A stretch of DNA of 64,000 bases from an uncultured Bacilli bacterium. Lineage in GTDB: Bacteria > Bacillota_I > Bacilli_A > RF39 > UBA660. The notes under the pieces are model-generated. The model saw only the letters and a list, made by a program, of their open reading frames with translations, was not told the DNA's origin and searched no databases. Positions 6,993-50,490 of this stretch are shown piece by piece; positions within the stretch are counted from its first letter, which is position 1, and each line of letters begins with the position of its first letter. Where the stretch lies: NCBI GenBank assembly GCA_934096075.1, contig CAKOLN010000007.1, positions 4,326-68,325 of the forward strand, given 5' to 3'. Both the position numbers and the translations under genes were made by a program.

Positions 6993-9074
6993 CTACAATT
7001 CAATCTTTCTTAAACTCTTATGATTTTTAGCTAATTGCTTTATCCCATCTTTAAATCCAAATGCTATAGTCGCAAGACTACCATCAATTTTAACTACAAC
7101 TCCATCTCCATATCTTTCATGTCTTACTCTATCTCCAACATTTAAATCATCATTTCTACCACTTTCATACATTTCTCCAGTTTTAATAGTTTTATTTTCA
7201 ACAATATTACTTTCTATTAAATCACTACTAATCTCTCCAATAAATCTACTAGGAATATTACTACTTGATTTACCAAATAATGTTCTATGTCTAGTATTTA
7301 ATAAATATAAATGTTTTTTTGCTCTAGTAATACCAACATAACACAATCTTCTTTCCTCTTCTAATTCACTTTCACTTTCCATACTTCTCATGTGTGGGAA
7401 AATTCCTTCTTCTAAACCAACTAAGAAAACATCATTAAATTCAAGCCCCTTCGCAGAATGTAATGTCATCAAACTAACGCCATCTTCTACTTCTTTATAT
7501 TCTCTCATATCACTAACAAGACTAATATTTTCTAAGAATTCTTCTAGATTATAAATTCCCTTCTCTTCAAAAGACAAAGTAATACTTTTAAACTCCTCCA
7601 AGTTCTCTAATCTTATTTGACTTTCTAAAGTATCACTCTCTTCAAGCTCACTTCTCATTCCAGTTTTATCTAATATTAAATCAACTAATCCACTTAAATT
7701 AGTATTCTTACTCTCTTCTTTTAAATCTAATATTAAATTTTTAAACTCTAACTCTTTACCACTACTAATAGTTTCAAACATAGAAACATCACTAATATTA
7801 GATTCCGTCCTAAGTCTTTCCAAAGTTTTAAGTCCTATTCCTCTTTTAGGCACATTAATAACCCTTTCCAAACTAACATCATCATTAGTATTATATATTA
7901 AATGTAAATACGCAATTAAATCTTTAATTTCTTTTCTATTATAGAAGAAATAACTACCTACTATTCTAAAAGGAATATTTTCTTTCAAAAATGCTTCTTC
8001 AATAACACGACTCTGTCCATTAGTTCTATATAAAACAGCTATTTCTTTAGGCTTTTCCCCATTACTTATTAACTTTCTAACTTCATTAATAACTGTTCTA
8101 GCTTCCTCTAATTCACTTTCACATCTAATATATTTAATCTTATCTCCATCACCATTATTACTCCATAAATTCTTTTCTTTTCTCTCTTTATTATTTTTAA
8201 TAACATCATTCGCTGCTTTTAAAATATTATTAGTACTTCTATAATTCTCATCTAATAAAACTGTCTTAGCCATAGGATAATCTTTTTCAAAATTCATAAC
8301 ATTCATATAGTTAGCAAATCTAAAGGAATAAATTGATTGATCCATATCTCCTACAACAAATAAATTTAAATACTTACTAGCAAGTAACTTACAAAGTTCA
8401 TATTGAACCATATTTGTATCTTGATACTCATCTACTAAAATATATTGATAATGTACTTGATATTTATCTAATACTTCATCACTCTTCTTAAATATTTTAA
8501 CAGGTAATATTAATAAATCATCAAAATCAACACTATTATTTCTCTTTAACATAGAAACATACTTCTTATATATTTTAATAACTACTTGATCAAGTGGACT
8601 AGTCATAAACTTACTATATTCTTCAGGACTTAATCCTTCATTTTTAGCAAAACTTATTTTATTAAGTATATATTTAATAGGATAATTCTCACTACTTAAA
8701 TTCATTTCTTTTAAGAATTTTTTAATCAAACTATTAACATCATCTCTATCTAAAATAGTTATATTATTTGTATAACCTAACACATCAGCATTCTCTCTTA
8801 AAACTTTAAGTCCAAAAGAGTGAAAAGTACCAATAAATATTTTATCAGCATCACTACCTATACTTCTAGATACTCTTTCTCTCATTTCTCGAGCTGCCCT
8901 ATTAGTAAATGTAATAGCTAATATATTTTGTGGTCTAACACCACTATTAATAAGATTAACTATTCTTTCCGTTAAAACTCTTGTCTTACCACTTCCAGCA
9001 CCTGCTAGAACTAAACAAGGTCCTTCTTTATGCATTACTGCTTCTTTTTGTCTTTCACTTAATTTATCAAACAT
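6993..9074 (-). CDS. pcrA: ATP-dependent DNA helicase PcrA (UvrD family)
   Basis: Walker A AGAGSGKT, motif II VDEYQDTN, TLHSAKGLEF, VGITRAK, and C-terminal GDRVRHERYGDGVV tail. Confidence 0.95.
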   Translation of the reverse strand: MFDKLSERQKEAVMHKEGPCLVLAGAGSGKTRVLTERIVNLINSGVRPQNILAITFTNRAAREMRERVSRSIGSDADKIFIGTFHSFGLKVLRENADVLGYTNNITILDRDDVNSLIKKFLKEMNLSSENYPIKYILNKISFAKNEGLSPEEYSKFMTSPLDQVVIKIYKKYVSMLKRNNSVDFDDLLILPVKIFKKSDEVLDKYQVHYQYILVDEYQDTNMVQYELCKLLASKYLNLFVVGDMDQSIYSFRFANYMNVMNFEKDYPMAKTVLLDENYRSTNNILKAANDVIKNNKERKEKNLWSNNGDGDKIKYIRCESELEEARTVINEVRKLISNGEKPKEIAVLYRTNGQSRVIEEAFLKENIPFRIVGSYFFYNRKEIKDLIAYLHLIYNTNDDVSLERVINVPKRGIGLKTLERLRTESNISDVSMFETISSGKELEFKNLILDLKEESKNTNLSGLVDLILDKTGMRSELEESDTLESQIRLENLEEFKSITLSFEEKGIYNLEEFLENISLVSDMREYKEVEDGVSLMTLHSAKGLEFNDVFLVGLEEGIFPHMRSMESESELEEERRLCYVGITRAKKHLYLLNTRHRTLFGKSSSNIPSRFIGEISSDLIESNIVENKTIKTGEMYESGRNDDLNVGDRVRHERYGDGVVVKIDGSLATIAFGFKDGIKQLAKNHKSLRKIEL

Positions 9075-15501: not shown

Positions 15502-15780
15502 TTATTCTTCTTTAGTTGGTGTATCTTCAGCTTTTTCATAAGCATCAAGAATTTCTCTTTCAAACATACTACGAACTTCTTGACTAATTGGATGTGCTAT
15601 ATCTTTAAATCCACCAGTACTAGTTTTTCTACTAGGCATTGCTATGAATAAACCTTTAGTCCCTTCTATAATTCTAATGTCATGTACTGCAAACTCATCA
15701 TCTAATAATACAGATGCAATACCTTTCATACGTGAGTCTTCTCTATCTACCTTACGTATACTAATGTTAGTTATCTTCAT
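15502..15780 (-). CDS. spoVG: septation protein SpoVG
   Basis: MKITNISIRKVD...KGIASVLLDDEFAVHDIRIIEGTKGLFIAMPSRK....FKDIAHPI is the canonical SpoVG sequence. Confidence 0.95.
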   Translation of the reverse strand: MKITNISIRKVDREDSRMKGIASVLLDDEFAVHDIRIIEGTKGLFIAMPSRKTSTGGFKDIAHPISQEVRSMFEREILDAYEKAEDTPTKEE

Positions 15781-15868
15781 AATATCCTCCTTGTAACTCT
15801 AACATAATTATAAAACGAGATTATTATGAAATCAAGTATTAAAGAAAATGTTTACAAATAAATGTAAA

Positions 15869-16609
15869 CTAAATAATATCACTATTCTTTTTAGAATAAA
15901 TATTTAATATAACAAAGTAAATTGTGAATAATATAGAAACATATAAAATAGATATACTTACTTCAAATAAAAATGATGAATATCTTATAGGATATAAATA
16001 ATACTTAGGAAGTAATTTAAACTGACTTAAATTGTTAATTAAATCACTATTAATTGGTAATAACACTAAACTAACTATATTACATAAATATAAACCTAAA
16101 GCAATCTTACTATTAAATAATAATCTTAAAGCAAAATAAATTAACATAAGAACATTTATAACAAACACATTTCTAATAACGTAAAAGATTAGATAAACCA
16201 AATAATTAATACCCTCATAATATTCTCCAAGTATAAAAACTAATTTACCATCTATAACTAATAAAACAAAAGGAATAACATAACAAATAAGCATAATCAA
16301 AGTATTAATGAATATTATTATCTTTAAAAAATATCTATAAGCACTAACTCTATCACTAAATCTAACCAAATAATTAACATTATTCTTAACTTCATTAAAT
16401 ATCTTATTAGATATAATAAGACACATCACTATCATTAAAAATGAAAATACAACATTAGATGAATTCATTAAATAGTTTCTAAGTAAATTAGTATTATCAG
16501 ATTTAGGAATATATAGAAAAAATATAGATAAAGTTAATGATAAAAATAAAGTTAATACAAATAATCTCGTTATGATAAAATATTTAATATCATTAATAAA
16601 CCTTTTCAT
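15869..16609 (-). CDS. polytopic membrane protein, probable permease of the adjacent ABC ATPase
   Basis: 246 aa with about 6 hydrophobic segments. Its start overlaps the stop of the ABC ATPase gene by 1 nt. Confidence 0.5.
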   Translation of the reverse strand: MKRFINDIKYFIITRLFVLTLFLSLTLSIFFLYIPKSDNTNLLRNYLMNSSNVVFSFLMIVMCLIISNKIFNEVKNNVNYLVRFSDRVSAYRYFLKIIIFINTLIMLICYVIPFVLLVIDGKLVFILGEYYEGINYLVYLIFYVIRNVFVINVLMLIYFALRLLFNSKIALGLYLCNIVSLVLLPINSDLINNLSQFKLLPKYYLYPIRYSSFLFEVSISILYVSILFTIYFVILNIYSKKNSDII

Positions 16610-17244
16610 TATATTTTACTTACCTTTCCATTTTCAAATTTATATAATTCATTTATTTCTAAATCTCTCAAATCCTCTTTATAATGTGAACACAAAATTA
16701 TAATTTTATCTTTCTTTATACTTAGTAAATAATCTTTAATTTTATCAACAGTTTTTTCTTCAATCGCATTAAAAGGTTCATCCAAAATTATTACATCAAC
16801 ATCTTCCATCAAAACACTCGCTATAGCTAATTTTTGTTTCATTCCTAAAGAAAATTGATAATATTTTTTATTATTATTTTCTAAATTAACAAGTTTTAAT
16901 ATATTTATTATTTCTTCATCAGATATTTTATTCTGAATATTCGCTAACAACTTTAGATTATCAAATGCACTTAAATCTGGAAAAAAGGAAGGTTTTTCTA
17001 TTAATGCTCTTAAACTTTTAGGAAACATATTGTTTTTATTATAATTAACTCCATCAAATAATATTTCACCACTAGTAGGATAATAAAGTCCAGTTAATAT
17101 CTTTAAAAACACACTTTTACCACTTCCATTAAGACCAACTATTCCATATATCTTACCTGATTCAAATTCTAAATTCACCTTCTCAAAAATAATATTACTT
17201 TTAAACTTTTTACTTAAATTATTAACTTTAATCTTCATACTCAT
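16609..17244 (-). CDS. ABC transporter ATP-binding protein
   Basis: Walker A GLNGSGKS, signature FSLGMKQKLAIA, Walker B VIILDEP. Confidence 0.9.
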   Translation of the reverse strand: MSMKIKVNNLSKKFKSNIIFEKVNLEFESGKIYGIVGLNGSGKSVFLKILTGLYYPTSGEILFDGVNYNKNNMFPKSLRALIEKPSFFPDLSAFDNLKLLANIQNKISDEEIINILKLVNLENNNKKYYQFSLGMKQKLAIASVLMEDVDVIILDEPFNAIEEKTVDKIKDYLLSIKKDKIIILCSHYKEDLRDLEINELYKFENGKVSKI

Positions 17245-39556: not shown

Positions 39557-39677
39557 ACTAACACTTTCCTATCAAAATAATTATATCATTAGTAAAAGAA
39601 AAAAGATATGAATTTAATCTTTTCATACCCAATATTACACATGTTTAACATTTAACTTATACTTCTACTAGTAATTT

Positions 39678-40466
39678 TTAATTAAACTTTTTAGTTAATA
39701 TATAATCCCTATTTGAATCATCTAATTCTACCACACCATAATCATGAACAGCTTCTATTAGTTGACCATTTACATTACGGTATGTTTCCCAAGCATTTGG
39801 CTCTACCGTAACCTTAACTGATATATCATTATTTATTCTTGCTCCTATAAAACTATTAATTGATTGTGTAGAAAAAATTGATGATTCATTCTTTTTATCG
39901 AATATTAATCCAAAATATGACTGCATATTCATACAACTTTTATATTGATTTACAAACATTCCTAAATCCAAAAATGGTATAGTAATATTTTCTATAGGAA
40001 TATTATCAATTAATCCATTAACATATTTAACAAAGCTTTCATAATAAAAGCTTCTAGATATTTTAAATTCATTCAATAATTTTTTTACTGTAGTTATTTC
40101 ATCATAATTTCTATTTTTATTTATATTTATTAAATGCATTAACCATGACAACTTATCATCTAAATTAGAATCATAAAATTCAATAGTTTTTTCTAAAATC
40201 CTACTAGCTACTAAAAATGATAAATATTCACGACTCATAGCCTGAATCATATAACTATCTTTATTTTTTAAATCAGCATCTATTTTTGGCAATCCAAACG
40301 AATCAAAATATAATGCCACTGGTTCTAATAATTCATATGTAAAAGGATAGTTCTTTTCAAGACACTTTAAAAATTCACTTCTTTCTTGTGTATTATATCC
40401 GTACACAAATAAATGTCTATTTTGATTCATTATTATTTTTTTTAAATATTCCTCATTTTTATACAT
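39678..40466 (-). CDS. hypothetical protein with a degenerate P-loop-like N-terminus
   Basis: The 262-aa ORF has a strong RBS (GGGGAGTGAGG). RHLFVYGYNTQERSEFL sits where a Walker A (GxxGxGK[ST]) would be, but Gly/Lys are replaced. The C-terminal motif is VEPNAWETYRNVNGQLIEAVHDYGVVELD. Confidence 0.4.
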   Translation of the reverse strand: MYKNEEYLKKIIMNQNRHLFVYGYNTQERSEFLKCLEKNYPFTYELLEPVALYFDSFGLPKIDADLKNKDSYMIQAMSREYLSFLVASRILEKTIEFYDSNLDDKLSWLMHLININKNRNYDEITTVKKLLNEFKISRSFYYESFVKYVNGLIDNIPIENITIPFLDLGMFVNQYKSCMNMQSYFGLIFDKKNESSIFSTQSINSFIGARINNDISVKVTVEPNAWETYRNVNGQLIEAVHDYGVVELDDSNRDYILTKKFN

Positions 40467-40701
40467 AAGCTTTACCTCACTCCCCGATTTCTATATCAAA
40501 ATTTCATTATATAATTATAGCACAACTACTCTATGATTTCTATAATATATTTCAAATCTTCTATTGCTTTATCTATATTCATCATACCATTGCCTATAGG
40601 TAAAATATTAAAACAACCAAATAATTTTTTCCCTTCAAAATGGTATTTCTTATTTTTAAAATATAATTTTTTGTTGAATAATTGTAAGTTTTTTTCGTAC
40701 A

Positions 40702-40723
40702 ACTTATCTAATAACTTATCTAA
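40702..40723 (+). repeat. tandem CTTATCTA site, copy 1
   Basis: ACTTATCTA-ATAA-CTTATCTAA, directly downstream of the 128-aa gene stop. Confidence 0.7.
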
Positions 40724-40725
40724 AA

Positions 40726-41112
40726 TTATTTATTTATATACTCATCATAATAATCATAACCTTTTTTAGTTATTTTAAATACTTCTCCTTTATACCCAAC
40801 ATCAGTTATATAATCATTATCTTCAAGTTTTTTTAAGGCATCCTCCCAATATGACATTTCCCTTTCAGTTTGTGATGCTGAACCAACTGAAAATCTAGCA
40901 GAACCACATTGTATTGTACGTCCACTAAGAGTTTTTATATAAATTATTGTAGGATTATGTTCATCTTCTATAGTTTTTTTCAAAAGTTTAGAAGCATATT
41001 CATTAGGAATATATTCTTTTGAGTTAATAAAATTATAAAGATTTACTTGTTTTTCTATTTGATTGACTATATTGTCATCACCTTTAATATTAATTTCATT
41101 TTTCTTATTCAT
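40726..41112 (-). CDS. hypothetical protein, third gene of the coupled operon
   Basis: The 128-aa ORF has RBS AGGAGGG and its ATG overlaps the stop of the 56-aa ORF (ATGAATAA). No family recognised. Confidence 0.5.
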   Translation of the reverse strand: MNKKNEINIKGDDNIVNQIEKQVNLYNFINSKEYIPNEYASKLLKKTIEDEHNPTIIYIKTLSGRTIQCGSARFSVGSASQTEREMSYWEDALKKLEDNDYITDVGYKGEVFKITKKGYDYYDEYINK

Positions 41113-41275
41113 TGTACTTACTTCCCTCCTGAACCACTTTATTATTATTCCCTTTTATTTTAGAAACATTTTTGCTTTTAATATTTGTAAAAGTAATACC
41201 GCCTAAAAATCCTACTATTAAACTAATAAAAATTTCTAGCAGATCTTTCCAATTATGTTGTATGAAATCAATCAT
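41105..41275 (-). CDS. unannotated small membrane protein (56 aa)
   Basis: Own translation: MIDFIQHNWKDLLEIFISLIVGFLGGITFTNIKSKNVSKIKGNNNKVVQEGSKYNE*. RBS AGAGGT lies 6 nt upstream. The ATG overlaps the upstream stop (AATGATTGA) and the stop overlaps the downstream ATG. One TM helix is followed by a basic tail. Confidence 0.6.
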   Translation of the reverse strand: MIDFIQHNWKDLLEIFISLIVGFLGGITFTNIKSKNVSKIKGNNNKVVQEGSKYNE

Positions 41276-41588
41276 TTTTTACCTCTGTATCTAGAAGTTT
41301 ATTTAAATCATTTAAATTATGATATATTTTATTCCATCCTTCATGTGATTCAATATATTGCTTACCTAAGCTTGTAACTAAATCCATTTCATTTTCTATT
41401 TCTATACCACCTAAAATATTAAACAATACTCTTTTAGGATTTATGTAATGCTCATTAACCATATCTCTAAATAAGGATACATAAATATCTTCATCAATAT
41501 TATAATTTTTTGAAGTTGGAATAATATCATTGTAAGATATTTCTTTTAATATGCTAAATTCTATAATTTCTTTTTCGATAGGTTTCAT
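41268..41588 (-). CDS. YjcQ-like winged-helix protein (phage-associated family)
   Basis: The 106-aa protein carries FSILKEIS...NIDEDIY........HYI ... LVTSLGKQYIESHEGWNKIYHNLNDLNKLL, resembling my recollection of the YjcQ (PF09639) pattern. Extended -10 TGGTATAAT and RBS AGGAAGTGA lie upstream. Confidence 0.5.
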   Translation of the reverse strand: MKPIEKEIIEFSILKEISYNDIIPTSKNYNIDEDIYVSLFRDMVNEHYINPKRVLFNILGGIEIENEMDLVTSLGKQYIESHEGWNKIYHNLNDLNKLLDTEVKND

Positions 41589-41651
41589 ATTATCACTTCC
41601 TATTTAATTATACCACATGGACTTCATTTTAAGGTTGATTTTGGACAAAAA

Positions 41652-41673
41652 ACTTATCTAAAACTTATCTTAA
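41652..41673 (+). repeat. tandem CTTATCTA site, copy 2 (upstream of the wHTH operon promoter)
   Basis: ACTTATCTA-AAA-CTTATCTTAA. An extra half-site TTATCTAAAAATTGTAAG lies at 41693..41710. Confidence 0.7.
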
Positions 41674-41714
41674 TGCCTTTTTTGAGGTGAAATTATCTAA
41701 AAATTGTAAGTAGT

Positions 41715-41754
41715 AAAAAGCTCGCAAGCCCTTTATTTATAAGGATTTGCGAAC
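41715..41754 (-). terminator. degenerate copy of the secA terminator
   Basis: Minus strand: GTTCGCAAATCC-ttataaataaa-GGGCTTGCGAGC-TTTTT. It is homologous to the real secA terminator but has 3 stem mismatches. Confidence 0.5.
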
Positions 41755-41900
41755 TTATTTACCACAACACTACTTATACTTGCGTCCACTGCCACATGGC
41801 CTTTTGTATTGGGGATTTTGGTAGCTTTTGGGAGCACTTGGCTAGTTATTTTGGCATTTGGCTGCACCCCAGAGCACTCCGTAGCACTCGGCAAACCTAG
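41755..41900 (-). pseudogene. decayed duplicate of the secA 3' end (C-terminal zinc-finger tail)
   Basis: TTATTTACCACAACA at 41755..41769 is identical to 43984..43998. Translation gives ...KRPCGSGRKYK*CCGK* versus the authentic ...DPCPCGSGRKYKQCCGK*. It has an in-frame TAG, a small deletion/frameshift, and GC content visibly above the surroundings. Confidence 0.75.
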
Positions 41901-41904
41901 TAGA

Positions 41905-41930
41905 ACTTATCTAAAAACTTATCTAAAAAA
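41905..41930 (+). repeat. tandem CTTATCTA site, copy 3
   Basis: ACTTATCTA-AAAA-CTTATCTAAAAAA, between the 572-aa gene stop and the secA remnant. Confidence 0.7.
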
Positions 41931-41985
41931 TAACGAATTTTAATAAATTACAATTTTTAGGCAAGAATAACATTTTGTAATTTAA

Positions 41986-43704
41986 CTACATCCAAAATCT
42001 TATTTCTTCTATTTTATAACCTCTTTTTTCTATTTCCTCAACTATTTGTTTAAAACTTGTGGAATTCATATTTTTAATTCTTCTATATCCACCAAAAGAT
42101 TTTGGTGCTACTTGTGGAATATTTTCCAATAACCAATAATAGACTTCTCTATCATGTGCTTCTTCAATATAAGGGTCAATTATTCGTTTTTGATAGTCTT
42201 CAGCACTTTCTGTTCCTGTTTCAGAAGCAAACTTTTGTAAATTATGCAATTCATCTACTCGTGTACCATGTAATTTATTCAAATTTTTATGTTCTACTTT
42301 TGCATCTTCAAATCTCCCTGCTAAAATCATCATATCAACTAATCTTTCATAGTCATCTCTTGTATATGCGTAAAAAGAATGAGGATACAACTCGTTTACT
42401 TTTTTCAAACACGCTATTGCTAAATCATAGCTTTTATTATTTTTATACTCTGTAGCTTTTCTACTAAGTATTTGTTCTGGCATATATACAACACTTTCGC
42501 CACCATCAGAATATTTTTGAGCTTCAGTTATAAGTATAGACATTATTCCATCTATAGTTGTTAAATCATATTTGCTATTAAACTCATTGATTTTTTTATT
42601 AGTATAACTATCATATCCTGTTTCATAGTTTTTATTATTCTGATTTTCTTTTTTTACTGTATCATCAATTAATTGTTCAGGTTGTACATTATTACTTTGT
42701 TTATTCTTCTTTTTATTCTTAATAATCAATATAATAACTATCGGTGATAAAAAGATACCTGCTGTTATTATGATCGCTAACATATCTATTATAGTAGAAA
42801 CAATAGCAGGATAATCAGTAATAATTATTTCATATATATTTTCATTATCATTTTCATCTAAAACTATTAATTTTATCTTGTCATTTTCTTTCAATGATTC
42901 TAGTTTTGTAATCTCTTTTTCGTTTAAATATATTTTTAGTTTTGCCTTTGCATCACTTAACTCGTATGAATAGTCTAGGGATGTTTCATTCTTTAATTTA
43001 GTTATGGTAGCTTTGTTGTTTTCAAATTCAACTTCACTAGATCCTAATACAAATTTTTTAATTGTAGCTGTTCCCTTGCCTTTAGTTTTATTAATTGTTA
43101 AAGTATAATTCTTTTTGTCTCCATTTTCGGCAGTAACAACTATATTAATTGTATTTTCACCCAGTGATAATTCTTTATTTTCAAATTCAACTTTCGCTTT
43201 TGAATCATTTGCTTCTATCTTAATGTCAACATGTTTTTTTTCTGTTTTAAAATTCATATTATCAGAAACAGTTATTTGTTCATCATCTATAGATACTTCT
43301 TTTATAGAATTATCTTTGCTTTTTTCTATAACAACTTCTTTTTGGCTGTTATTTTGTGTATTATTGTTTGAATAATTATTACCATAATTGCTACTTGTCC
43401 CACCGTTTCCGGAACTGTTCGATGAAGAGTTGCTGCTACCATCCGTTGCTCCAGCAGTCCCCTCATTTTTGTTATAGCCAGAACATGGATCACTATAAAT
43501 TGCTTCTCCATCAGCATAATAATTATTTCCGTTTGTCACCGCCACATGCCAATGAGTTCCGCCATGACCATCACTGTGCATTCCATATGTAACACCATTT
43601 GGACATGTTTTTATAGAACTTTTTCTTAAACCACCACCTGTTGCATTTACTGTAAGTGGTAAAAGTACTAACATACAAATTCCTAATGTTAAAATCCTTT
43701 TCAT
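41986..43704 (-). CDS. bitopic surface protein: signal peptide, His-rich (GGTHWH) module, Asn/Ser/Gly linker, cadherin-like beta-sandwich repeats, TM helix, helical cytoplasmic domain
   Basis: ATG 43704 (MKRILTLGICMLVLLPLTVNA) follows RBS AAGAGGTG. Motifs include MHSDGHGGTHWHV and the cadherin-like signature GENTINIVVTAENGDKKNYTLTINKT. The TM is IIDMLAIIITAGIFLSPIVIILII, followed by a C-terminal region of about 230 aa of unknown family. Confidence 0.7.
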   Translation of the reverse strand: MKRILTLGICMLVLLPLTVNATGGGLRKSSIKTCPNGVTYGMHSDGHGGTHWHVAVTNGNNYYADGEAIYSDPCSGYNKNEGTAGATDGSSNSSSNSSGNGGTSSNYGNNYSNNNTQNNSQKEVVIEKSKDNSIKEVSIDDEQITVSDNMNFKTEKKHVDIKIEANDSKAKVEFENKELSLGENTINIVVTAENGDKKNYTLTINKTKGKGTATIKKFVLGSSEVEFENNKATITKLKNETSLDYSYELSDAKAKLKIYLNEKEITKLESLKENDKIKLIVLDENDNENIYEIIITDYPAIVSTIIDMLAIIITAGIFLSPIVIILIIKNKKKNKQSNNVQPEQLIDDTVKKENQNNKNYETGYDSYTNKKINEFNSKYDLTTIDGIMSILITEAQKYSDGGESVVYMPEQILSRKATEYKNNKSYDLAIACLKKVNELYPHSFYAYTRDDYERLVDMMILAGRFEDAKVEHKNLNKLHGTRVDELHNLQKFASETGTESAEDYQKRIIDPYIEEAHDREVYYWLLENIPQVAPKSFGGYRRIKNMNSTSFKQIVEEIEKRGYKIEEIRFWM

Positions 43705-43783
43705 TCTTACACCTCTTATAATAATTATAACATAAATTATTGGTATAATTTTGATATTACAACTTTTAAATAACAAATTACAA

Positions 43784-43808
43784 TTTAGATAATTTTTAGA
43801 TAAGTTTT
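43784..43808 (-). repeat. tandem CTTATCTA site, copy 4 (inverted relative to the others; upstream of the 572-aa gene)
   Basis: The plus strand reads TTTAGATAATTTTTAGATAAGTTTT, which is the reverse complement of AAAACTTATCTA-AAAA-TTATCTAAA. Confidence 0.7.
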
Positions 43809-43881
43809 GTATTTAATTTGAGAACATTCTTATAATATGCGTTTTGCCCTTATTTTATAAGGGCTTGCAAGGATTTTACTG

Positions 43882-43902
43882 CTTATCTAAAACTTATCTA
43901 AG
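43882..43902 (+). repeat. tandem CTTATCTA site, copy 5 (just downstream of the secA terminator)
   Basis: CTTATCTA-AAA-CTTATCTAAG occupies the same relative position to the authentic secA end as copy 2 does to the remnant. Confidence 0.7.
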
Positions 43903-43944
43903 ACAAAAGACATGCCTAAAATTACCTAAATATTGTAATCATAG

Positions 43945-43983
43945 AAAAACCCGCAATCCCTTATTTTATACGGGTTCGCGGGC
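43945..43983 (-). terminator. rho-independent terminator of secA
   Basis: Minus strand: GCCCGCGAACCC-gtataaaataa-GGGATTGCGGG-TTTTTC, immediately after the TAA. Confidence 0.85.
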
Positions 43984-46476
43984 TTATTTACCACAACATT
44001 GTTTATATTTACGTCCTGAGCCACAAGGACAAGGATCATTTCTACCAACAGTTTGGTTCTTTTTAACAGGTTTTGATTTAACCTTTTCTTTACTATCATT
44101 AGTTCTAATATTTTTATTCTCAACTCTTTCTAAGTTTTGTCTAACTTCTGCTTTAAGTAAATAAGTAGTTATTTCTTTATTAGTCTCTTTTAACATATTG
44201 TCAAAAAGTTCAAAACCTTCTAGTGCATAAGCCTGTAATGGATTAGTTTGAGCATATCCTCTTAATCCAATTCCTTCTTTTAAATGTTCCATATTATCTA
44301 GCTGATTCATCCAATTCTTATCTAATACTTTTAACGTAATAGCTTTTTCAAAATCATCTTGTATATCTAAAGGAACTTCACTTAGCTTAGAATTATAATC
44401 ATTAACAACTATATCATAAATATAATCTTGCATTTCAGGAATACTCTTACTTTCTAATTCTTTCTCATCTAATTTTTTAGATTTAAGTAAATTAGCATTA
44501 AAGTACTCACATATATTAACTACATCATTATGTGTAATTGTATCCTCAGGTGGAAAATGATTATTAATTTGATCAATAACAAATTCTTTAAATATAGTTA
44601 AAATTCTATCTTTTATATTATCTTTATCTAATATTTCATTTCTTCTTTCATAAACAATTTCTCTCTGTTTACTAATTACATTATCATAATCAAGTAATGC
44701 TTTTCTTCTATCATAGTTAAATCCTTCAACTCTCTTTTGACTAGATTCAATATTTTTACTCATCATTCTATGATTTATAGGTGTATTTTCATCAAAACCA
44801 AGACTACCCATTAAAGATTTTATTTTTTCACTACCAAACTTAATCATTAAGTCATCTTCCATAGAAACATAGAATCTTGTTCTACCTGGGTCTCCTTGTC
44901 TACCACTTCTACCTCTTAATTGATTATCAATACGTCTACTTTCATGTCTCTCAGTACCTATTACTAAAAGACCACCTAATTCCTTAACACCTTCACCCAA
45001 TTTAATATCTGTACCACGTCCAGCCATATTAGTTGCAATAGTAACAGCATCTTTTTGACCAGCTTTTTCTATTATATGAGCTTCTCTTTCATGATTCTTT
45101 GCATTTAATAGTTCATGTGGTATTCTTTTTTTATTTAATAAACCACTTAAATATTCACTACTTTCAATTGATGCAGTACCAACTAATATAGGTTGATGAG
45201 TCTTATGTATTTCTTCTATATAATTAGCAATAGCATTATATTTACCTCTTTTATTCATAAATACATAATCTTCTTCATCTATTCTAATAACAGGTTTATT
45301 TGTAGGAATTACAATAACATACATATTATAAATATTTCTAAATTCTTCCTCTTCAGTTTTAGCAGTACCTGTCATACCTGATAACTTATTATACATTCTA
45401 AATAAATTTTGAAAAGTAATCGTAGCCAAAACTTTAGTTTCTTCATTAATATGTACCCCTTCTTTTGCTTCTAAAGCTTGATGAAGTCCATCACTATATT
45501 GTCTTCCATGCATAAGTCTACCAGTAAATGCATCTACAATTATAATTTTATCACTATCAACTACATAATCCACATCTTTTTTAAATCCATAATTAGCAAC
45601 TAAAGCCTTATCTAAATTATGCACTATGGCAGCATTCTTAATATCATATAAATTATCAACATTCAATAATCTTTCTGCTTTTACAATACCTTCTTCAGTT
45701 AAAGTAACGCTTCTAGTTTTTTCATCTAACACATAATCATCAGTAGTTAAACTCTTAGCCGTTCTATCCGCTAATTTATATAAATCAGCACTTTTACTTA
45801 CACCACCACTTATAATTAACGGAGTTCTTGCTTCATCTATTAATATTGAGTCAACTTCATCTATAATTGCAAAATTTAAAGGTCTTTGTACTCTATTTTT
45901 CCTTCTAACAACCATGTTATCTCTTAAATAGTCAAACCCTAATTCATTATTAGTTGTATATGTAATATCTTTACTATATGCTTCTCTCTTTTGTTCTGGA
46001 GTAGCATCTTTCAAATTAACTCCTACACTAACATCAAGATAATTATAAATCTTACCCATCCATTCAGCATCACGTACACTTAAATATTCATTTACTGTAA
46101 CAACATGAACACCTTTTCCAGATAACGCATTTAAATATGCAGGCATAGTACTTGTTAAAGTTTTACCTTCACCTGTTTTCATCTCAGCTATATTACCATA
46201 ATGTATACATATACCACCAATAACTTGAACTTTATAAGGTTTTTCTCCTATCATTCTATATGCAGCCTCTCTAACAACCGCAAAAGCAGGCACTAATATA
46301 TCATCCAATGTTTCTCCATCTTTTAATCTAGTCTTAAATTCTTGAGTTTTAGCTTTCAATTCTAAATCTGTTAGTTTACTCATTTCTTCATCTAAAGCCA
46401 TAACTTCATCAGCTAACTTATCAAATCTTTGTAATTCTTTATATTCTCTGTCAAATAATTTTGTAAATATATTCAT
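43984..46476 (-). CDS. secA: preprotein translocase ATPase SecA
   Basis: Walker A MKTGEGKT, DEAD-like IIDEVDSILIDEARTPLIISG, TNMAGRGTDI, and C-terminal zinc finger CPCGSGRKYKQCCGK. Confidence 0.97.
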   Translation of the reverse strand: MNIFTKLFDREYKELQRFDKLADEVMALDEEMSKLTDLELKAKTQEFKTRLKDGETLDDILVPAFAVVREAAYRMIGEKPYKVQVIGGICIHYGNIAEMKTGEGKTLTSTMPAYLNALSGKGVHVVTVNEYLSVRDAEWMGKIYNYLDVSVGVNLKDATPEQKREAYSKDITYTTNNELGFDYLRDNMVVRRKNRVQRPLNFAIIDEVDSILIDEARTPLIISGGVSKSADLYKLADRTAKSLTTDDYVLDEKTRSVTLTEEGIVKAERLLNVDNLYDIKNAAIVHNLDKALVANYGFKKDVDYVVDSDKIIIVDAFTGRLMHGRQYSDGLHQALEAKEGVHINEETKVLATITFQNLFRMYNKLSGMTGTAKTEEEEFRNIYNMYVIVIPTNKPVIRIDEEDYVFMNKRGKYNAIANYIEEIHKTHQPILVGTASIESSEYLSGLLNKKRIPHELLNAKNHEREAHIIEKAGQKDAVTIATNMAGRGTDIKLGEGVKELGGLLVIGTERHESRRIDNQLRGRSGRQGDPGRTRFYVSMEDDLMIKFGSEKIKSLMGSLGFDENTPINHRMMSKNIESSQKRVEGFNYDRRKALLDYDNVISKQREIVYERRNEILDKDNIKDRILTIFKEFVIDQINNHFPPEDTITHNDVVNICEYFNANLLKSKKLDEKELESKSIPEMQDYIYDIVVNDYNSKLSEVPLDIQDDFEKAITLKVLDKNWMNQLDNMEHLKEGIGLRGYAQTNPLQAYALEGFELFDNMLKETNKEITTYLLKAEVRQNLERVENKNIRTNDSKEKVKSKPVKKNQTVGRNDPCPCGSGRKYKQCCGK

Positions 46477-47640: not shown

Positions 47641-48252
47641 ATGAAAGATCTTTTAATTAATTCCACAATGAATAATATTAAACGATATTATAATTATGAC
47701 GAAGTAAGGTTAAAAGAAATAAGATATGGTTTAGCAAGTTTATATCTACATTTAACTAAAACAATTGTAATATTTAGTTTATCATATTTATTTGGATATT
47801 TAAGAACACTTCTTATATTAATGGCAACATATAGTGTACTAAGACTAACTGCCTTTGGTGTACATGCAAAAAAAAGTTCACATTGCTGGATAGCATCTTC
47901 TATTACATTTCTGCTTTTACCAATATTATGTGAAAGTTTAAATATAAATCTTAAATTTAAGATATTAATATCTGTGTTTTGTATAATATTTTTAAGTATC
48001 TATGCACCTGCCGACACTGAAAAAAGGCCATTAATAAATAAAAAGAAAAGAATTATATTTAAAATCGTAACAATTATTTCAAGCATAACATATTTAATTC
48101 TTATTGTAATAATTAAAGACTATATTTTAAATAATTGTATTTTATTTGGATTAATACTAGGTACAGTTGCTGTATTACCAATAACTTACAAATTATTTGG
48201 AGTAAAGTATAATAATTATAAAAATTATAAGAAAGGAGGATTAAATAAATGA
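47641..48252 (+). CDS. agrB: accessory gene regulator B (AgrD-processing membrane peptidase)
   Basis: 203-aa polytopic protein with the conserved catalytic region RLTAFGVHAKKSSHCWIASS (His...Cys). Confidence 0.9.
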   Translation: MKDLLINSTMNNIKRYYNYDEVRLKEIRYGLASLYLHLTKTIVIFSLSYLFGYLRTLLILMATYSVLRLTAFGVHAKKSSHCWIASSITFLLLPILCESLNINLKFKILISVFCIIFLSIYAPADTEKRPLINKKKRIIFKIVTIISSITYLILIVIIKDYILNNCILFGLILGTVAVLPITYKLFGVKYNNYKNYKKGGLNK

Positions 48253-48365
48253 AATTATTTGCTAGTTTATTCAGCTACTTAGGAGAATTCATCGCAAAAA
48301 CAACTTCTGGAGCTTGCTGGTTCAGTATGTTAGATGAAGAAGAAACACCAGAAAGTCTTTTATAA
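48249..48365 (+). CDS. agrD: autoinducing peptide precursor AgrD (38 aa), not in the ORF track
   Basis: Its ATG overlaps the agrB stop (ATGA). Own translation: MKLFASLFSYLGEFIAKTTSGACWFSMLDEEETPESLL*. It has an amphipathic leader, a Cys-containing core (CWFSM) and an acidic recognition tail (LDEEETPESLL), as in known AgrD peptides. Confidence 0.8.
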   Translation: MKLFASLFSYLGEFIAKTTSGACWFSMLDEEETPESLL

Positions 48366-48379
48366 AAAAATTAAAAATG

Positions 48380-48395
48380 ACACTTATTAAAGTGT
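48380..48395. terminator. short bidirectional hairpin between the convergent agrD and agrC
   Basis: ACACTT-atta-AAGTGT is flanked by an A-run and a T-run. It overlaps the agrC stop. Confidence 0.45.
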
Positions 48396-49685
48396 TATTT
48401 TTAATTCTGTTACAAAATCTTTATCAAACATATATTGACTCAAAGATAATTGTTCTGAACTAGTAATCAACTTATTTACAATATATAATCCATAACCGTG
48501 ATTTTTTCCTTTAGTACTAAATCCTTTTTTATTTATATTTTCTATATCAACCTTATCTTCACAACTATTTTGAATTAAAACAAATAATTCATTTCCAAGC
48601 TTAAACATTTCTATAAAAATCAATTTTTCGTTAGTATGTATTGTTGCTTCAATAGCATTATCTAATAAAATGCCAATAATTTTGCAAACTTTATAATAAA
48701 GCTTTGCATCCAATTTATCAAAATAAGTGTATACCTCTTTACTTATTTCAGTATTAAAATTAATGTTTTTATCAATTATATTAGCTACTTTATAATAAAC
48801 TATACCCTTTACACCAGTAGGTAAAGTATAAAGCCTAGTGTAAGCACCATTCTTCTTATTCTGATAATCATTTAAAATTTCACTTAATAAATCTTCATAC
48901 TCAATGCTTGCTTTATTTTTAAAACTTTTGAGTACAACCAAGTTATTCAACATTTCATGTCGATTTTCTCTATTAACTTCTAGCATAGACTCATACTCAT
49001 TCATTATATCTAACAATGCTTTTTGTTCAGCCAAAGCCGTTTTATTTTTAATAAATTCTTTGACCAATACAAATGATAACAAGGAAAACGCTAATAACAA
49101 AAAGAAAGTCATCCAAAAACTTTCAAAAAGAAAGTTAAAAGCATGTACATATGTAGCTAACACGAATGTCGAAAAAACAATTACTATCACTATTATAATT
49201 ACTGAACTAATTTTATTTTCAATTAGTTTAAAAAGATTTTTAGTAAAGCTAAGAAATTTTCTCATTTTAAATAAAAGATATAAGAAAATTGTTACGAAAA
49301 AGGTTGAAAATGCCTTTAATATATCAAGTGCATACATATTTACCTTATTTCCTGATGATAATATAAGTAAAAATAAAGATATTAAAAAATCAAAAATAAA
49401 TATAGCAATATATAAATATAAAGTTTTAAATAAAACAACATAATATTTTTCCTTAAATATTAAAAGTAACATTAAATACACTAATAATAACATAAATACT
49501 ATCTTAAATTTTGATACTACAAACATATTAATTATAAAATCAAATACTGCACTTATTAATATTGTTAATATACTTTTTAAATTTAATTCACATGTATCAT
49601 TCAAAGTTTTTTCATAACATTTTACCAGAACAAACAAATTTAAAAATGCTCCAATAAAACACAATGCATAACTAACGATTTTCAC
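48387..49685 (-). CDS. agrC: AgrC-like sensor histidine kinase (HPK10, GHKL ATPase)
   Basis: About 6 TM segments in the N-terminus. H-box-like NRENRHEMLNNL, N-box IGILLDNAIEA and G-box GFSTKGKNHGYGLYIV. Confidence 0.8.
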   Translation of the reverse strand: MKIVSYALCFIGAFLNLFVLVKCYEKTLNDTCELNLKSILTILISAVFDFIINMFVVSKFKIVFMLLLVYLMLLLIFKEKYYVVLFKTLYLYIAIFIFDFLISLFLLILSSGNKVNMYALDILKAFSTFFVTIFLYLLFKMRKFLSFTKNLFKLIENKISSVIIIVIVIVFSTFVLATYVHAFNFLFESFWMTFFLLLAFSLLSFVLVKEFIKNKTALAEQKALLDIMNEYESMLEVNRENRHEMLNNLVVLKSFKNKASIEYEDLLSEILNDYQNKKNGAYTRLYTLPTGVKGIVYYKVANIIDKNINFNTEISKEVYTYFDKLDAKLYYKVCKIIGILLDNAIEATIHTNEKLIFIEMFKLGNELFVLIQNSCEDKVDIENINKKGFSTKGKNHGYGLYIVNKLITSSEQLSLSQYMFDKDFVTELKITL

Positions 49686-50394
49686 GTTCCATCAACTCTT
49701 TCCTTCGTAATCTAGAAAGCATATATACTTCTTCTCCACTATCTAAAACAAACTTGCTATTCTTCCAATCAAACAATTTAACTCTGGCCATATTAACAAT
49801 ACAAGATTTATGAGTATAAACATAATTATTTGTTAAATGCTTATAAAATTTTTTAAGTGTTGTTGTAAGTGGATAACTTCCATTGTCAGTAACAACCATA
49901 ATTCTTCTTTCATTATTTAGTTTGTAAATATATTGAATTTTATCATAATCAAAATTATAACTCATAAAACTATTTTTATAACTAAACTTCTCAGAATAAT
50001 TCAATTGTGCTAAACATAAATCAAACAATTCTAATAAATTTGACTGATAATCTTCATCCTTAACAATAAAATCTAATATTTGTAACCTTTCTTTATATGC
50101 TTTAAGAATTACATTATCATCACCCTCAGCCGTAAAAATAACAATAGGACTATCCCAATCATCTTCTCTTATCTTTCTTGCAATATCAACAGCTGTACCA
50201 TTTGGAAGATAATAATCTAATAAGAAAACATGTTTTTCATAACAATTTTCACACTTTTCAAATATACCATCACAAATTTTATCATATTTAACTATATCAA
50301 ACTTGTAATTGGTAGTTAACATATAATTCATTATTAATCTTTCAACATCATCTCTATTGAATTTATTATCCTCTACAATTATAAACTTTATCAT
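49672..50394 (-). CDS. agrA: LytTR-family response regulator (AgrA-like)
   Basis: Receiver domain MIKFIIVEDNK...FLLDYYLP. The C-terminal LytTR pattern is ...YIYKLNNERRIMVVTDNGSYPLTTTLKKF...THKSCIVNM. ATG 50394 follows RBS AGAGGG. The gene overlaps the agrC start by 14 nt. Confidence 0.85.
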   Translation of the reverse strand: MIKFIIVEDNKFNRDDVERLIMNYMLTTNYKFDIVKYDKICDGIFEKCENCYEKHVFLLDYYLPNGTAVDIARKIREDDWDSPIVIFTAEGDDNVILKAYKERLQILDFIVKDEDYQSNLLELFDLCLAQLNYSEKFSYKNSFMSYNFDYDKIQYIYKLNNERRIMVVTDNGSYPLTTTLKKFYKHLTNNYVYTHKSCIVNMARVKLFDWKNSKFVLDSGEEVYMLSRLRRKELMERENR

Positions 50395-50490
50395 AGAAAC
50401 CCTCTTTCTCGTATTGCCAAAGCAATAATATAATAACACCTTTTTAACAAAAATAACAGGCCCTACTAGGTCATTTTTTTATTTTTTTCT

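Follow-up and report, generated by a model that had tools for sequence, protein, structure and literature searches.

A direct repeat of the secA 3' end and its probable role as an attachment core in a tandem cassette array of an uncultured Bacilli bacterium

The secA 3' end, its repeat, and the two cassettes

The DNA analyzed here, referred to as the window, is a stretch of 64,000 nucleotides (nt) from contig CAKOLN010000007.1 of an uncultured Bacilli bacterium (assembly GCA_934096075.1). On its minus strand it encodes an 830-amino-acid (aa) SecA protein (43984..46476) that has all SecA Pfam domains and ends in the SEC-C zinc finger motif (residues 812 to 830); an identical protein is encoded on two human gut metagenome contigs, L001 and L002 (L numbers denote related loci used for comparison). 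Downstream of secA lies a diverged second copy of the gene's 3' end, and between the two copies is a gene for a 572-aa protein. An initial annotation, made from the sequence alone, saw in this arrangement an element that had integrated into the 3' end of secA. That observation is real but was mis-sized, and its interpretation is supported and can be extended. With a probability of roughly 0.78, we favor the explanation that the second copy is an attachment (att) core and belongs to an array in which two small integrative cassettes without an integrase, which we call E1 and E2, are docked in tandem on the secA 3' end.

Local alignment of 41653..41799 with 43882..44028 (147 bp) gave a score of 97, compared with 21.8 ± 2.6 in 500 dinucleotide shuffles (z about 29), and the degenerate direct repeat is thus far above chance similarity between AT-rich sequences. 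Its global identity is 74.2% (112 of 151 columns), with 80% and no gaps in the 45-nt secA tail, 71% in the terminator, and 70% in the downstream arm. A length of about 250 bp had been claimed, but 41800..41900 gave 48.7% identity to the sequence upstream of the secA tail in a forced alignment, which amounts to no similarity. The parts follow each other on the minus strand as originally described (tail, TAA, hairpin, TTACAAT(A/T)TTTAG, and tandem TTAGATAAG), and the two tails read as stated, CPCGSGRKYKQCCGK* in secA and (R)PCGSGRKYK*CCGK* in the remnant, with a 15-mer common to both (asterisks denote stops). The in-frame TAG of the remnant is present; the indel that had been placed in its tail is not, and indels sit instead in the terminator and the arm. 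The tandem motif TTAGATAAG, thought to occur twice, was found at five sites (S1 to S5), all within 40703..43903.

The proposed attachment core comprises 45 nt, that is, the last 14 codons and the stop of secA. Core copy 1 (PCGSGRKYKQCCGK plus the stop; 43984..44028, minus strand) matched a profile of the tail with 56 bits. Core copy 2, the remnant (41755..41799, minus strand), matched it with 47.3 bits and is 80% identical to core 1 without gaps; its frame reads YKR up to the core boundary and PCGSGRKYK*CCGK plus a stop beyond it. Both terminator hairpins fold, as had been predicted, and each is followed by a U-run. The secA intrinsic terminator (43941..43985, minus strand) has a folding energy of -20.2 kcal/mol (z -4.3), and its counterpart after core 2 (41717..41752, minus strand) has one of -11.9 kcal/mol, with 5 of 200 shuffles folding as well. 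The latter differs from the secA terminator on both sides of its stem, and these changes preserve the pairing.

Two loci from the same species, L003 and L004, lack both E1 and E2. Upstream of the core, secA of the window is 98.4% identical to theirs at the nucleotide level; after the tail, similarity drops to about 52%, and the DNA between the tail and a common 735-aa acyltransferase gene is wholly different, the 572-aa gene included. The breakpoint falls exactly at the tail, and the repeat is thus the site of a presence/absence polymorphism. Core 1 is 80% and 87% identical to the tails of L003 and L004, respectively, compared with 96 to 97% in the 300 nt just upstream. It reads GRKYKQ where the conspecifics have GKKYKN/Q, and it is near-identical to a remnant core of L022 (L022_r1), a locus whose SecA has 70% protein identity to that of the window. 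On the strength of these identities, core 1 appears to be the attL-side core, supplied at least in part by the element, which agrees with the earlier proposal that the element brings its own replacement end. The secA gene is intact and has its SEC-C motif; the element-side repeat thus restores the target gene.

E1 extends from the secA terminator to 41800; its left arm of about 200 bp is followed by the 572-aa gene and then by a type A right arm, all on the minus strand. The 3' half of the secA terminator belongs to E1, because identity with E1 in other hosts (L183 and L149) begins in the loop and 3' half of that hairpin. The left arm (43780..43940) contains TTACAATATTTAGGTAATTT, the direct tandem S5 (43882..43903), a hairpin (43846..43864), and the inverted tandem S4 (43785..43806), and it recurs in conserved form in 17 loci, where the secA ends and right arms that precede it differ. 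The hairpin, which had been cited as an extra partial terminator copy and a sign of more than one event, does exist (about -11 kcal/mol, without a U-run); because it is a fixed component of this left-arm type in the 17 loci, it is not the scar of a separate event. There was indeed more than one event, but the reason is E2. S4 and the hairpin lie between S5 and the probable promoter of the 572-aa gene, where they could possibly serve as extra arm sites or in regulation.

The 572-aa gene (41986..43704) is the sole open reading frame (ORF) between the repeat copies, and the claim that a single gene makes up the cargo is correct for E1; the array, however, runs further, through E2 to 40601. The encoded protein has a signal-peptide-like N terminus, a Cadherin-like beta-sandwich (PF12733, E = 1.7e-5), and a hydrophobic segment and is predicted to be a membrane or surface protein. 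It had no NCBIfam match and only weak matches in PADLOC and PHROGs; homologues with 91 to 99% aa identity occur in L149, L183, and L088. The type A right arm (41800..41928) holds tandem S3 (41906..41928), a small hairpin motif of the CCGAG/CTCGG type, and an A/C-rich stretch. It has no similarity to secA coding sequence, and in more than 20 loci a homologous right arm stands before a remnant core. The remnant region is GC-rich, as had been noticed (46% GC in 41746..41905 and 48% in 41800..41905, compared with 24.6% for the window). A structured noncoding RNA, considered as an alternative identity for this GC-rich arm, is ruled out by the lack of any Rfam match at E ≤ 1 in 40400..44200 and of a significant RNA fold of the arm (z +0.8).

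Core 2 forms the junction between E1 and E2. The integration at the secA end that was originally proposed is supported, but the remnant is this junction and not a displaced native secA end. The E2 left arm (41653..41716) contains TTACAATTTTTAGATAATTTCACCTCAAAAAAGG and tandem S2 (41653..41670); it is 85% identical to the arm that follows secA in L077 and 87% identical to that at the second junction of L088. Three overlapping ORFs of 106, 56, and 128 aa (40726..41588; gene calls on L001), for which we found no family in Pfam, NCBIfam, PADLOC, or PHROGs, constitute the cargo, which is absent from L077 and L088; the arms of these loci match those of E2, but their cargo differs. The type B right arm (40601..40725) carries tandem S1 (40703..40725), followed by AAAAAATTATTTGGTTGTTTTAATATTTTA. 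It aligns with L077, L022, and L018 and is 82 to 87% identical to the arms of L088 and L077. All parts of E2 are on the minus strand.

At the end of the array lies a 60-bp relic (40539..40600, minus strand) derived from a host gene for a 219-aa protein, of which it is the 3' end. L003 and L004 have this gene intact, and the relic is 94 to 97% identical to L003 14601..14662 and L004 17560..17621. The E2 right arm is fused to the relic at a core-like octamer (CCTATAGG compared with CCTTGTGG), exactly where cores start (TTTTA followed by CCTATAGGCAATGG, compared with CCTTGTGGCAGTGG in the core). This distal junction looks like the product of a secondary-site recombination that would have removed the native DNA between secA and the 219-aa gene. 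The alternative that 40560..40605 is a second, heavily decayed secA tail is refuted by L003 and L004, in which it is the 3' end of the host gene. Next to the relic is an 886-bp insertion (40538..39653) with a 262-aa ORF, for which no informative family was found in Pfam, NCBIfam, PADLOC, or PHROGs. This insertion is absent from L003 and L004 and takes the place of 9 bp at the very end of their 219-aa gene, and because its edges have no secA-type core or arm, it arose by another route than the cassettes. Beyond it, conspecific homology resumes at 98.9%.

On the upstream side of secA we found hpf, a cold-shock gene, and an agr locus, with no recombinase and no intI, attI, or common promoter (Pc). 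The agr-type quorum-sensing locus (47641..50439) encodes AgrB (47641..48252, plus strand), a GHKL histidine kinase (48387..49685, minus strand), and a LytTR response regulator (49672..50439, minus strand); on the identical contig L001, gene calls place a 38-aa ORF of AgrD size (8112..8228) between the genes for AgrB and the kinase. A scan with sigma-70 promoter and terminator consensus patterns gave promoter-like sites at chance level and, owing to its loop and mismatch limits, 0 terminators.

Recurrence of cores, arms, and cargo in related loci

We scanned 203 related loci plus the window with a profile of the 45-nt tail. The set includes at least 120 metagenome stretches found by the exact 20-mer TTAGATAAGTTTTAGATAAG. 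The nearest genomes are metagenome-assembled genomes (MAGs) labelled uncultured Bacilli, Clostridium sp. CAG:628 or CAG:1000, or Tenericutes. Among 266 unique junctions, 93 were authentic secA ends and 173 were remnants on the same strand, with up to five cores on one contig of at most 15 kb, and every one of the 173 remnants begins at the same nucleotide, CC[A/T]TGTGG. Distant species have one to four further secA tails downstream on the same strand, each starting just before PCGSG (four in L018; others in L022, L031, L008, L011, L014, and L036). Remnant cores vary in a coding-like manner: entropy at codon positions 1, 2, and 3 was 0.50, 0.46, and 1.22, respectively (0.30, 0.26, and 1.26 in authentic ends), and 144 of the 173 (83%) retain 14 open codons and a stop.

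Each remnant core has a conserved right arm upstream that opens with two tandem 9-mers, and downstream it has a terminator hairpin and then a left arm that closes with another tandem pair. Right arms of type A read CTGCTAGGnTT(C/G)CCGAGTGCT(A/C).CGGA, with an A/C-rich stretch of about 80 nt, and those of type B read TTGTACGAAAAAAACTTACAATT...GGTTGTTTTAATATTTTA. Counted from the core start, the median start of the left tandem is +126 (interquartile range, 125 to 127) and that of the right tandem is -127. Different subfamilies use different 9-mers: TTAGATAAG, TTAGATACC, (C)TACATACG, TTGTCCAC, and TGTTTGCA. The motif class was the same in both arms of one cassette in 39 of 59 cases, compared with 23.9 ± 2.1 after shuffling, and the same in the arms on the two sides of one core, which belong to neighboring cassettes, in 5 of 56. 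Because the arms agree within a cassette and rarely across a core, the unit is the cassette bounded by cores.

The agreement within cassettes suggests that both arms carry sites for the same binding protein. A two-armed attP with arm-type sites is organized in this way, as a core between two tandem-bearing arms, and the integrases encoded in the arrays carry an Arm DNA-binding domain (PF14657); we postulate that the tandem 9-mers are the arm sites of an integrase. Since the 9-mers are phased by 11 bp and an agr/LytTR system is nearby, response-regulator operators were also considered. This is disfavored as their primary role because the sites are symmetric at ±126 bp around cores, also occur downstream of cargo, and covary within cassettes. 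The E1/E2 junction of the window (41653..41928) is one of the rare pairs of neighbors of the same class; such pairs could be scarce because tandems of one type are unstable or because the search pattern biased the sampling.

The loci yielded 117 nonidentical core-to-core cassettes with a median length of 1.47 kb (range, 0.67 to 9.2 kb; 76 are shorter than 2 kb). Their ORFs, 205 of 215 (95%) of which are co-oriented with secA, fall into 144 protein clusters. Pfam matches of the cluster representatives were to GNAT acetyltransferases (9), NUDIX (5), RhuM (4), methyltransferases (4), AbiEii-like ATPases (3), and class I tRNA synthetases (2), with only 4 integrases, and PADLOC matches included PDC-S05, PDC-S23, mad2, mad3, and AriA-like proteins. 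Similarity to integrases was detected in 18 of the 117 cassettes and was near full length in one; most cassettes, E1 and E2 included, show no relic of mobility genes. The cargo also includes extra aminoacyl-tRNA synthetases: L014 encodes a TyrS-type enzyme (15664..16902), two cargo clusters match tRNA-synt_1b, and an ORF of L022 (15125..16792) is a candidate with an N terminus that looks ArgS-like. We speculate that such spare synthetases may confer resistance to synthetase inhibitors.

E1, and arms of the E2 type, were found in other hosts. In L183, E1 adjoins a secA gene that is 73% identical to that of the window at the nucleotide level and whose tail is 71% identical, while the 3' half of the terminator and the left arm are 95% and the cargo is 91% identical to E1 of the window. 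E1 is also present in L149 (arm, 95%; cargo, 97%). In L088, the DNA behind E1 and its right arm has a junction and arms resembling those of the window, but the cargo is different and the distal core is intact. The cargo between the E2-type arms of L077 is different too, namely a two-gene candidate defense system in PADLOC with matches to PDC-M59A (E = 1.5e-91) and PDC-M59B (E = 2.7e-34; the latter also matches a Doc-family toxin). The E1-type left arm occurs after the secA ends of several species and after remnant cores with at least five different right arms, and one such junction, in L189, joins a type A right arm through a core to an E1-type left arm and is attP-like. These combinations support the idea that cassettes move as units between hosts.

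Assemblies frequently end at the secA tail. The contigs of 15 of about 38 relatives end inside it or at most 75 nt after it (L006, L007, L009, L015 to L017, L019 to L021, L026, L027, L029, L033, L035, and L046), and L002 ends 114 nt past the stop. A repeat or a polymorphic point would break short-read assemblies at secA in this way, and such breaks will hide these arrays in most MAGs. A scan of viral contigs with the arm 20-mer returned only two contigs, both of which contain the same prophage.

Exchange at the core, integrases, and competing explanations

The point of exchange was mapped with pairs of junctions that have one arm in common and the other not. Identity from a common right arm is lost at about core position +5, and identity from a common left arm reaches back through the terminator and is about 0.1 above that of the other class across much of the core. 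This linkage, together with the host-gene fusion at the same nucleotide, points to the left edge of the core as the main place of exchange, the position expected if an incoming element supplies the tail and terminator.

Tyrosine integrases are encoded at this site in several relatives. They lie directly behind secA in L023, L076, L014, L010, and L012, at a distance of 160 to 220 bp from the core in the first two, and have domain architectures that span Arm-DNA-bind_4, Phage_int_SAM_3, and Phage_integrase. In L123 and L161, a core is preceded by an excisionase-like helix-turn-helix (HTH) gene, a gene for a full integrase, and a right arm; a toxin-like ORF is present as well. In the IMG/VR contigs L083 and L084, a core, a terminator, and a left arm with TTAGATAAG abut genes for a 387-aa integrase, a CI-like S24 repressor, and a Cro-like HTH protein. 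This int-cI-cro set is the lysogeny module of a temperate phage, and it is the best candidate for the kind of helper that recognizes the arm type of the window. Relatives also have cassettes in tandem with a prophage (L083) or with int-bearing elements (L110 and L113). Taken with the comparisons of strains and species and with the remnants at one site, these integrases support the original idea of an element that integrates into the secA 3' end.

Two further observations concern integrase genes. In L012 (6061..6543), an integrase N terminus with the Arm DNA-binding domain reads into an RVT_1 reverse transcriptase domain, and this is probably a group II intron in an integrase gene downstream of secA. 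In several loci (L103, L113, L114, L119, L177, L179, and L203; for example, L113 6838..7272), an ORF of about 150 aa corresponds to the arm-binding and SAM-like N terminus of an integrase only and is 72 to 79% identical to the integrases of L010 and L014. In every case a TTAGATAAG tandem follows after about 30 nt and a core after about 600 nt, and the ORF could be a relic or a stand-alone factor that binds arm sites.

We propose the following course of events for cassettes that consist of a left arm, cargo, and a right arm, with tandem 9-bp sites about 126 bp on either side of the 45-nt core. An arm-binding tyrosine integrase, encoded by a prophage or an integrative mobilizable element (IME) that uses the same core, would act in trans and recombine the attP-like site of a cassette with the secA tail. 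With exchange at or near the left core edge, the incoming element would provide a working zinc finger tail and terminator, and the older tail would be displaced downstream as an untranslated remnant. Repeated secA-proximal integration would stack cassettes, E2 first and E1 second in the window, and a further event resembling site-specific recombination may have joined the E2 right arm to the core-like octamer in the host gene, with deletion of the intervening DNA. The catalysis by an integrase, its action in trans, and the continuing mobility of the cassettes in the window are the parts of this scheme that we infer from the arrangement of sequences.

Several points weigh against this scheme. 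The whole window contains no integrase homologue (tblastn with four integrase queries), which counts against the present mobility of E1 and E2. The remnant core has a stop codon and the distal junction of E2 is not a true core, so the window copies may be fixed relics. The crossover is not uniquely placed, since E1 identity in three hosts begins within the hairpin (in its loop or 3' half) and not at the core edge, and linkage of the core to the two arms is weak (0.76 and 0.81, compared with a background of 0.72); the breakpoint in the hairpin could be either a second exchange point or a later conversion of the translated tail. The metagenome loci were chosen by the TTAGATAAG pattern, which biases the motif statistics, and the coding-like pattern of remnants is partly favored by a profile built from coding tails. 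Long integrase-bearing elements cannot appear core to core in loci of at most 15 kb, and the integrase-less fraction is overestimated because they escape this kind of capture. Finally, the att junctions come from assembled sequence, and those of attP-like form are internal ones (L189).

A process that dispenses with a site-specific recombinase is homologous recombination, in which the core-plus-arm modules (150 to 250 bp) would serve as homology anchors and cargo would be swapped after transformation or transduction. The modules are long and 70 to 95% identical between cassettes, L077 and L088 have the same arms with different cargo, and the lack of an integrase in the window, the presence of several identity breakpoints, and the loose linkage of the core to either arm would also fit. 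We nevertheless consider it unlikely, given a left boundary that is precise to the nucleotide in 173 junctions, tandems at a fixed ±126 bp, and the arm-binding integrases, excisionase-like gene, and prophage module embedded at the same junctions; in addition, the octamer at the fusion of E2 with the host gene matches the core at only about 11 of 14 positions, too little homology for such an exchange. An integron-like platform, with a recombinase elsewhere capturing cassettes through the hairpin as an attC-like site and with expression from secA read-through or promoters in the arms, is improbable. It would account for small, co-oriented, and highly diverse cassettes, many with GNAT, toxin, or defense-type genes and only one with a near-full-length integrase, for the hairpin at every junction, and for E1 identity that starts inside the hairpin. 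However, secA has no integrase beside it on the upstream side, the main exchange maps to the left core edge and not to the hairpin, and each cassette has its own terminator; the integrases are of phage or integrative and conjugative element (ICE) type with arm-binding domains, and the sites, with two long tandem-bearing arms, are unlike attC.

It is also conceivable, if very improbable, that the cassettes are inert scars, that is, decayed prophages or IMEs with deleted interiors whose arms were kept by recent descent, with TTAGATAAG perhaps acting as an operator or promoter element. Integrase fragments in 18 of the 117 cassettes and the recurrent truncated N-terminal ORFs would fit decay, as would the stop codon in the window remnant and its degenerate distal junction, and in the window tandems lie upstream of each transcription unit. 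Inert scars would not be expected to occur as the same cassette, 91 to 97% identical, in hosts whose secA genes are 73% identical, to assort independently of their neighbors, or to keep both arms at fixed spacing in more than 100 cassettes with unrelated cargo; moreover, 83% of remnant cores are still open, and tandems also occur downstream of cargo, in right arms. We therefore prefer integrative cassettes on the secA 3' end to these alternatives.

A broader extrapolation, which we offer tentatively and regard as doubtful, is that the secA tail is the dock of an integron-like form of gene capture in uncultured, small-genome gut Bacilli. Hundreds of cassettes of one or two genes, each with a two-armed attP-like site and a core that has to double as a functional SecA zinc finger tail, would be moved into and out of arrays by phage or IME integrases in trans and would spread between species with temperate phages after composite excision, forming a modular store of defense, toxin, acetyltransferase, and spare aminoacyl-tRNA synthetase genes. 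Should such movement in trans take place, much of the gene flux in these reduced-genome gut bacteria would pass along this route, and the region downstream of secA would be a practical marker for accessory and defense genes. The site is compact and well defined and is open to direct assay with an integrase, attB, and attP.

Comparison with known systems

Integrases that target the 3' end of a conserved gene and restore that gene are a textbook principle, and tandem accretion follows from it. The secA arrays are an unusual form of it. Here, the att core is the coding end of an essential protein, and every mobile copy is under pressure to encode a functional zinc-binding tail, which shows as third-position variation in untranslated remnants. 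The arrays are abundant in human and animal gut metagenomes, in which a scan with a single 20-mer gave at least 120 stretches, and they occur in lineages known only from MAGs. The secA cassette array is widespread in uncultured gut bacteria and apparently undescribed; secA is not mentioned as an att site in the streptococcal ICE/IME surveys searched, and literature searches, among them a phrase search, turned up no report of it in this role.

A close precedent is the tandem accretion of ICEs and IMEs, and of cis-mobilizable elements (CIMEs), at the 3' ends of several genes, among them the housekeeping gene fda in Streptococcus thermophilus (ICESt1 and ICESt3), as outlined in PMC5704250 (after Pavlovic 2004 and Bellanger 2011). 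There, as at secA, attL and attR include the end of a protein-coding target gene, elements without integration genes retain att sites and have the integrase of a neighbor as their proposed mobilizer, and a newcomer that enters an att site bearing the gene end produces a tandem array (PMC5704250). E1 and E2 keep both arms and cores without an integrase, which is a feature of CIMEs. Unlike CIME tandems, they have no functional mobilizing element in tandem with them within the window. The cassettes of the secA arrays are also far smaller than CIMEs and ICEs (median, 1.5 kb, often one gene) and more numerous, with hugely diverse cargo, and their partners are of prophage type or xis-int modules and not conjugative elements; we saw no conjugation or relaxase genes.

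Tycheposons of Prochlorococcus are tyrosine-recombinase elements stacked at one tRNA-gene site (bioRxiv 10.1101/2020.12.28.424599). As in the secA arrays, stacking pushes older elements deeper, partial target copies and degenerate elements are scattered about, cargo-carrying and phage-satellite-like forms coexist, and the hosts have streamlined genomes (10.1101/2020.12.28.424599). The target at secA, in contrast to a tRNA gene, is a coding end, so that the repeat must encode a functional zinc finger tail, and tandem 9-mers at ±126 bp are described for the secA arrays only. In Dehalococcoides, ssrA-targeted islands lie in tandem, each bounded by a direct repeat of the gene's 3' end (PMC3146451), and the presence of several tandem elements with 3'-end repeats at a single-copy gene is shared with secA. 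These islands, unlike the secA cassettes, have an RNA gene as their target, are larger and integrase bearing, and belong to another phylum and ecology.

What sets the secA arrays apart is that cassettes of integron size, mostly with a single gene and no integrase and with candidate antiphage systems among their cargo, are combined with a precise two-armed site. In chromosomal integrons, one platform holds many small cassettes that share an orientation and mostly carry one gene, with a repeated structured site between them; the functions are very diverse and for the most part unknown, and acetyltransferases, toxins, and defense genes are among the cargo. In scale, co-orientation, and diversity of cargo, the secA arrays are comparable. 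They differ in that IntI, attI, and Pc are not adjacent, in that a two-armed core derived from a gene takes the place of attC hairpins, and in that the main exchange maps outside the hairpin and each cassette carries its own terminator.

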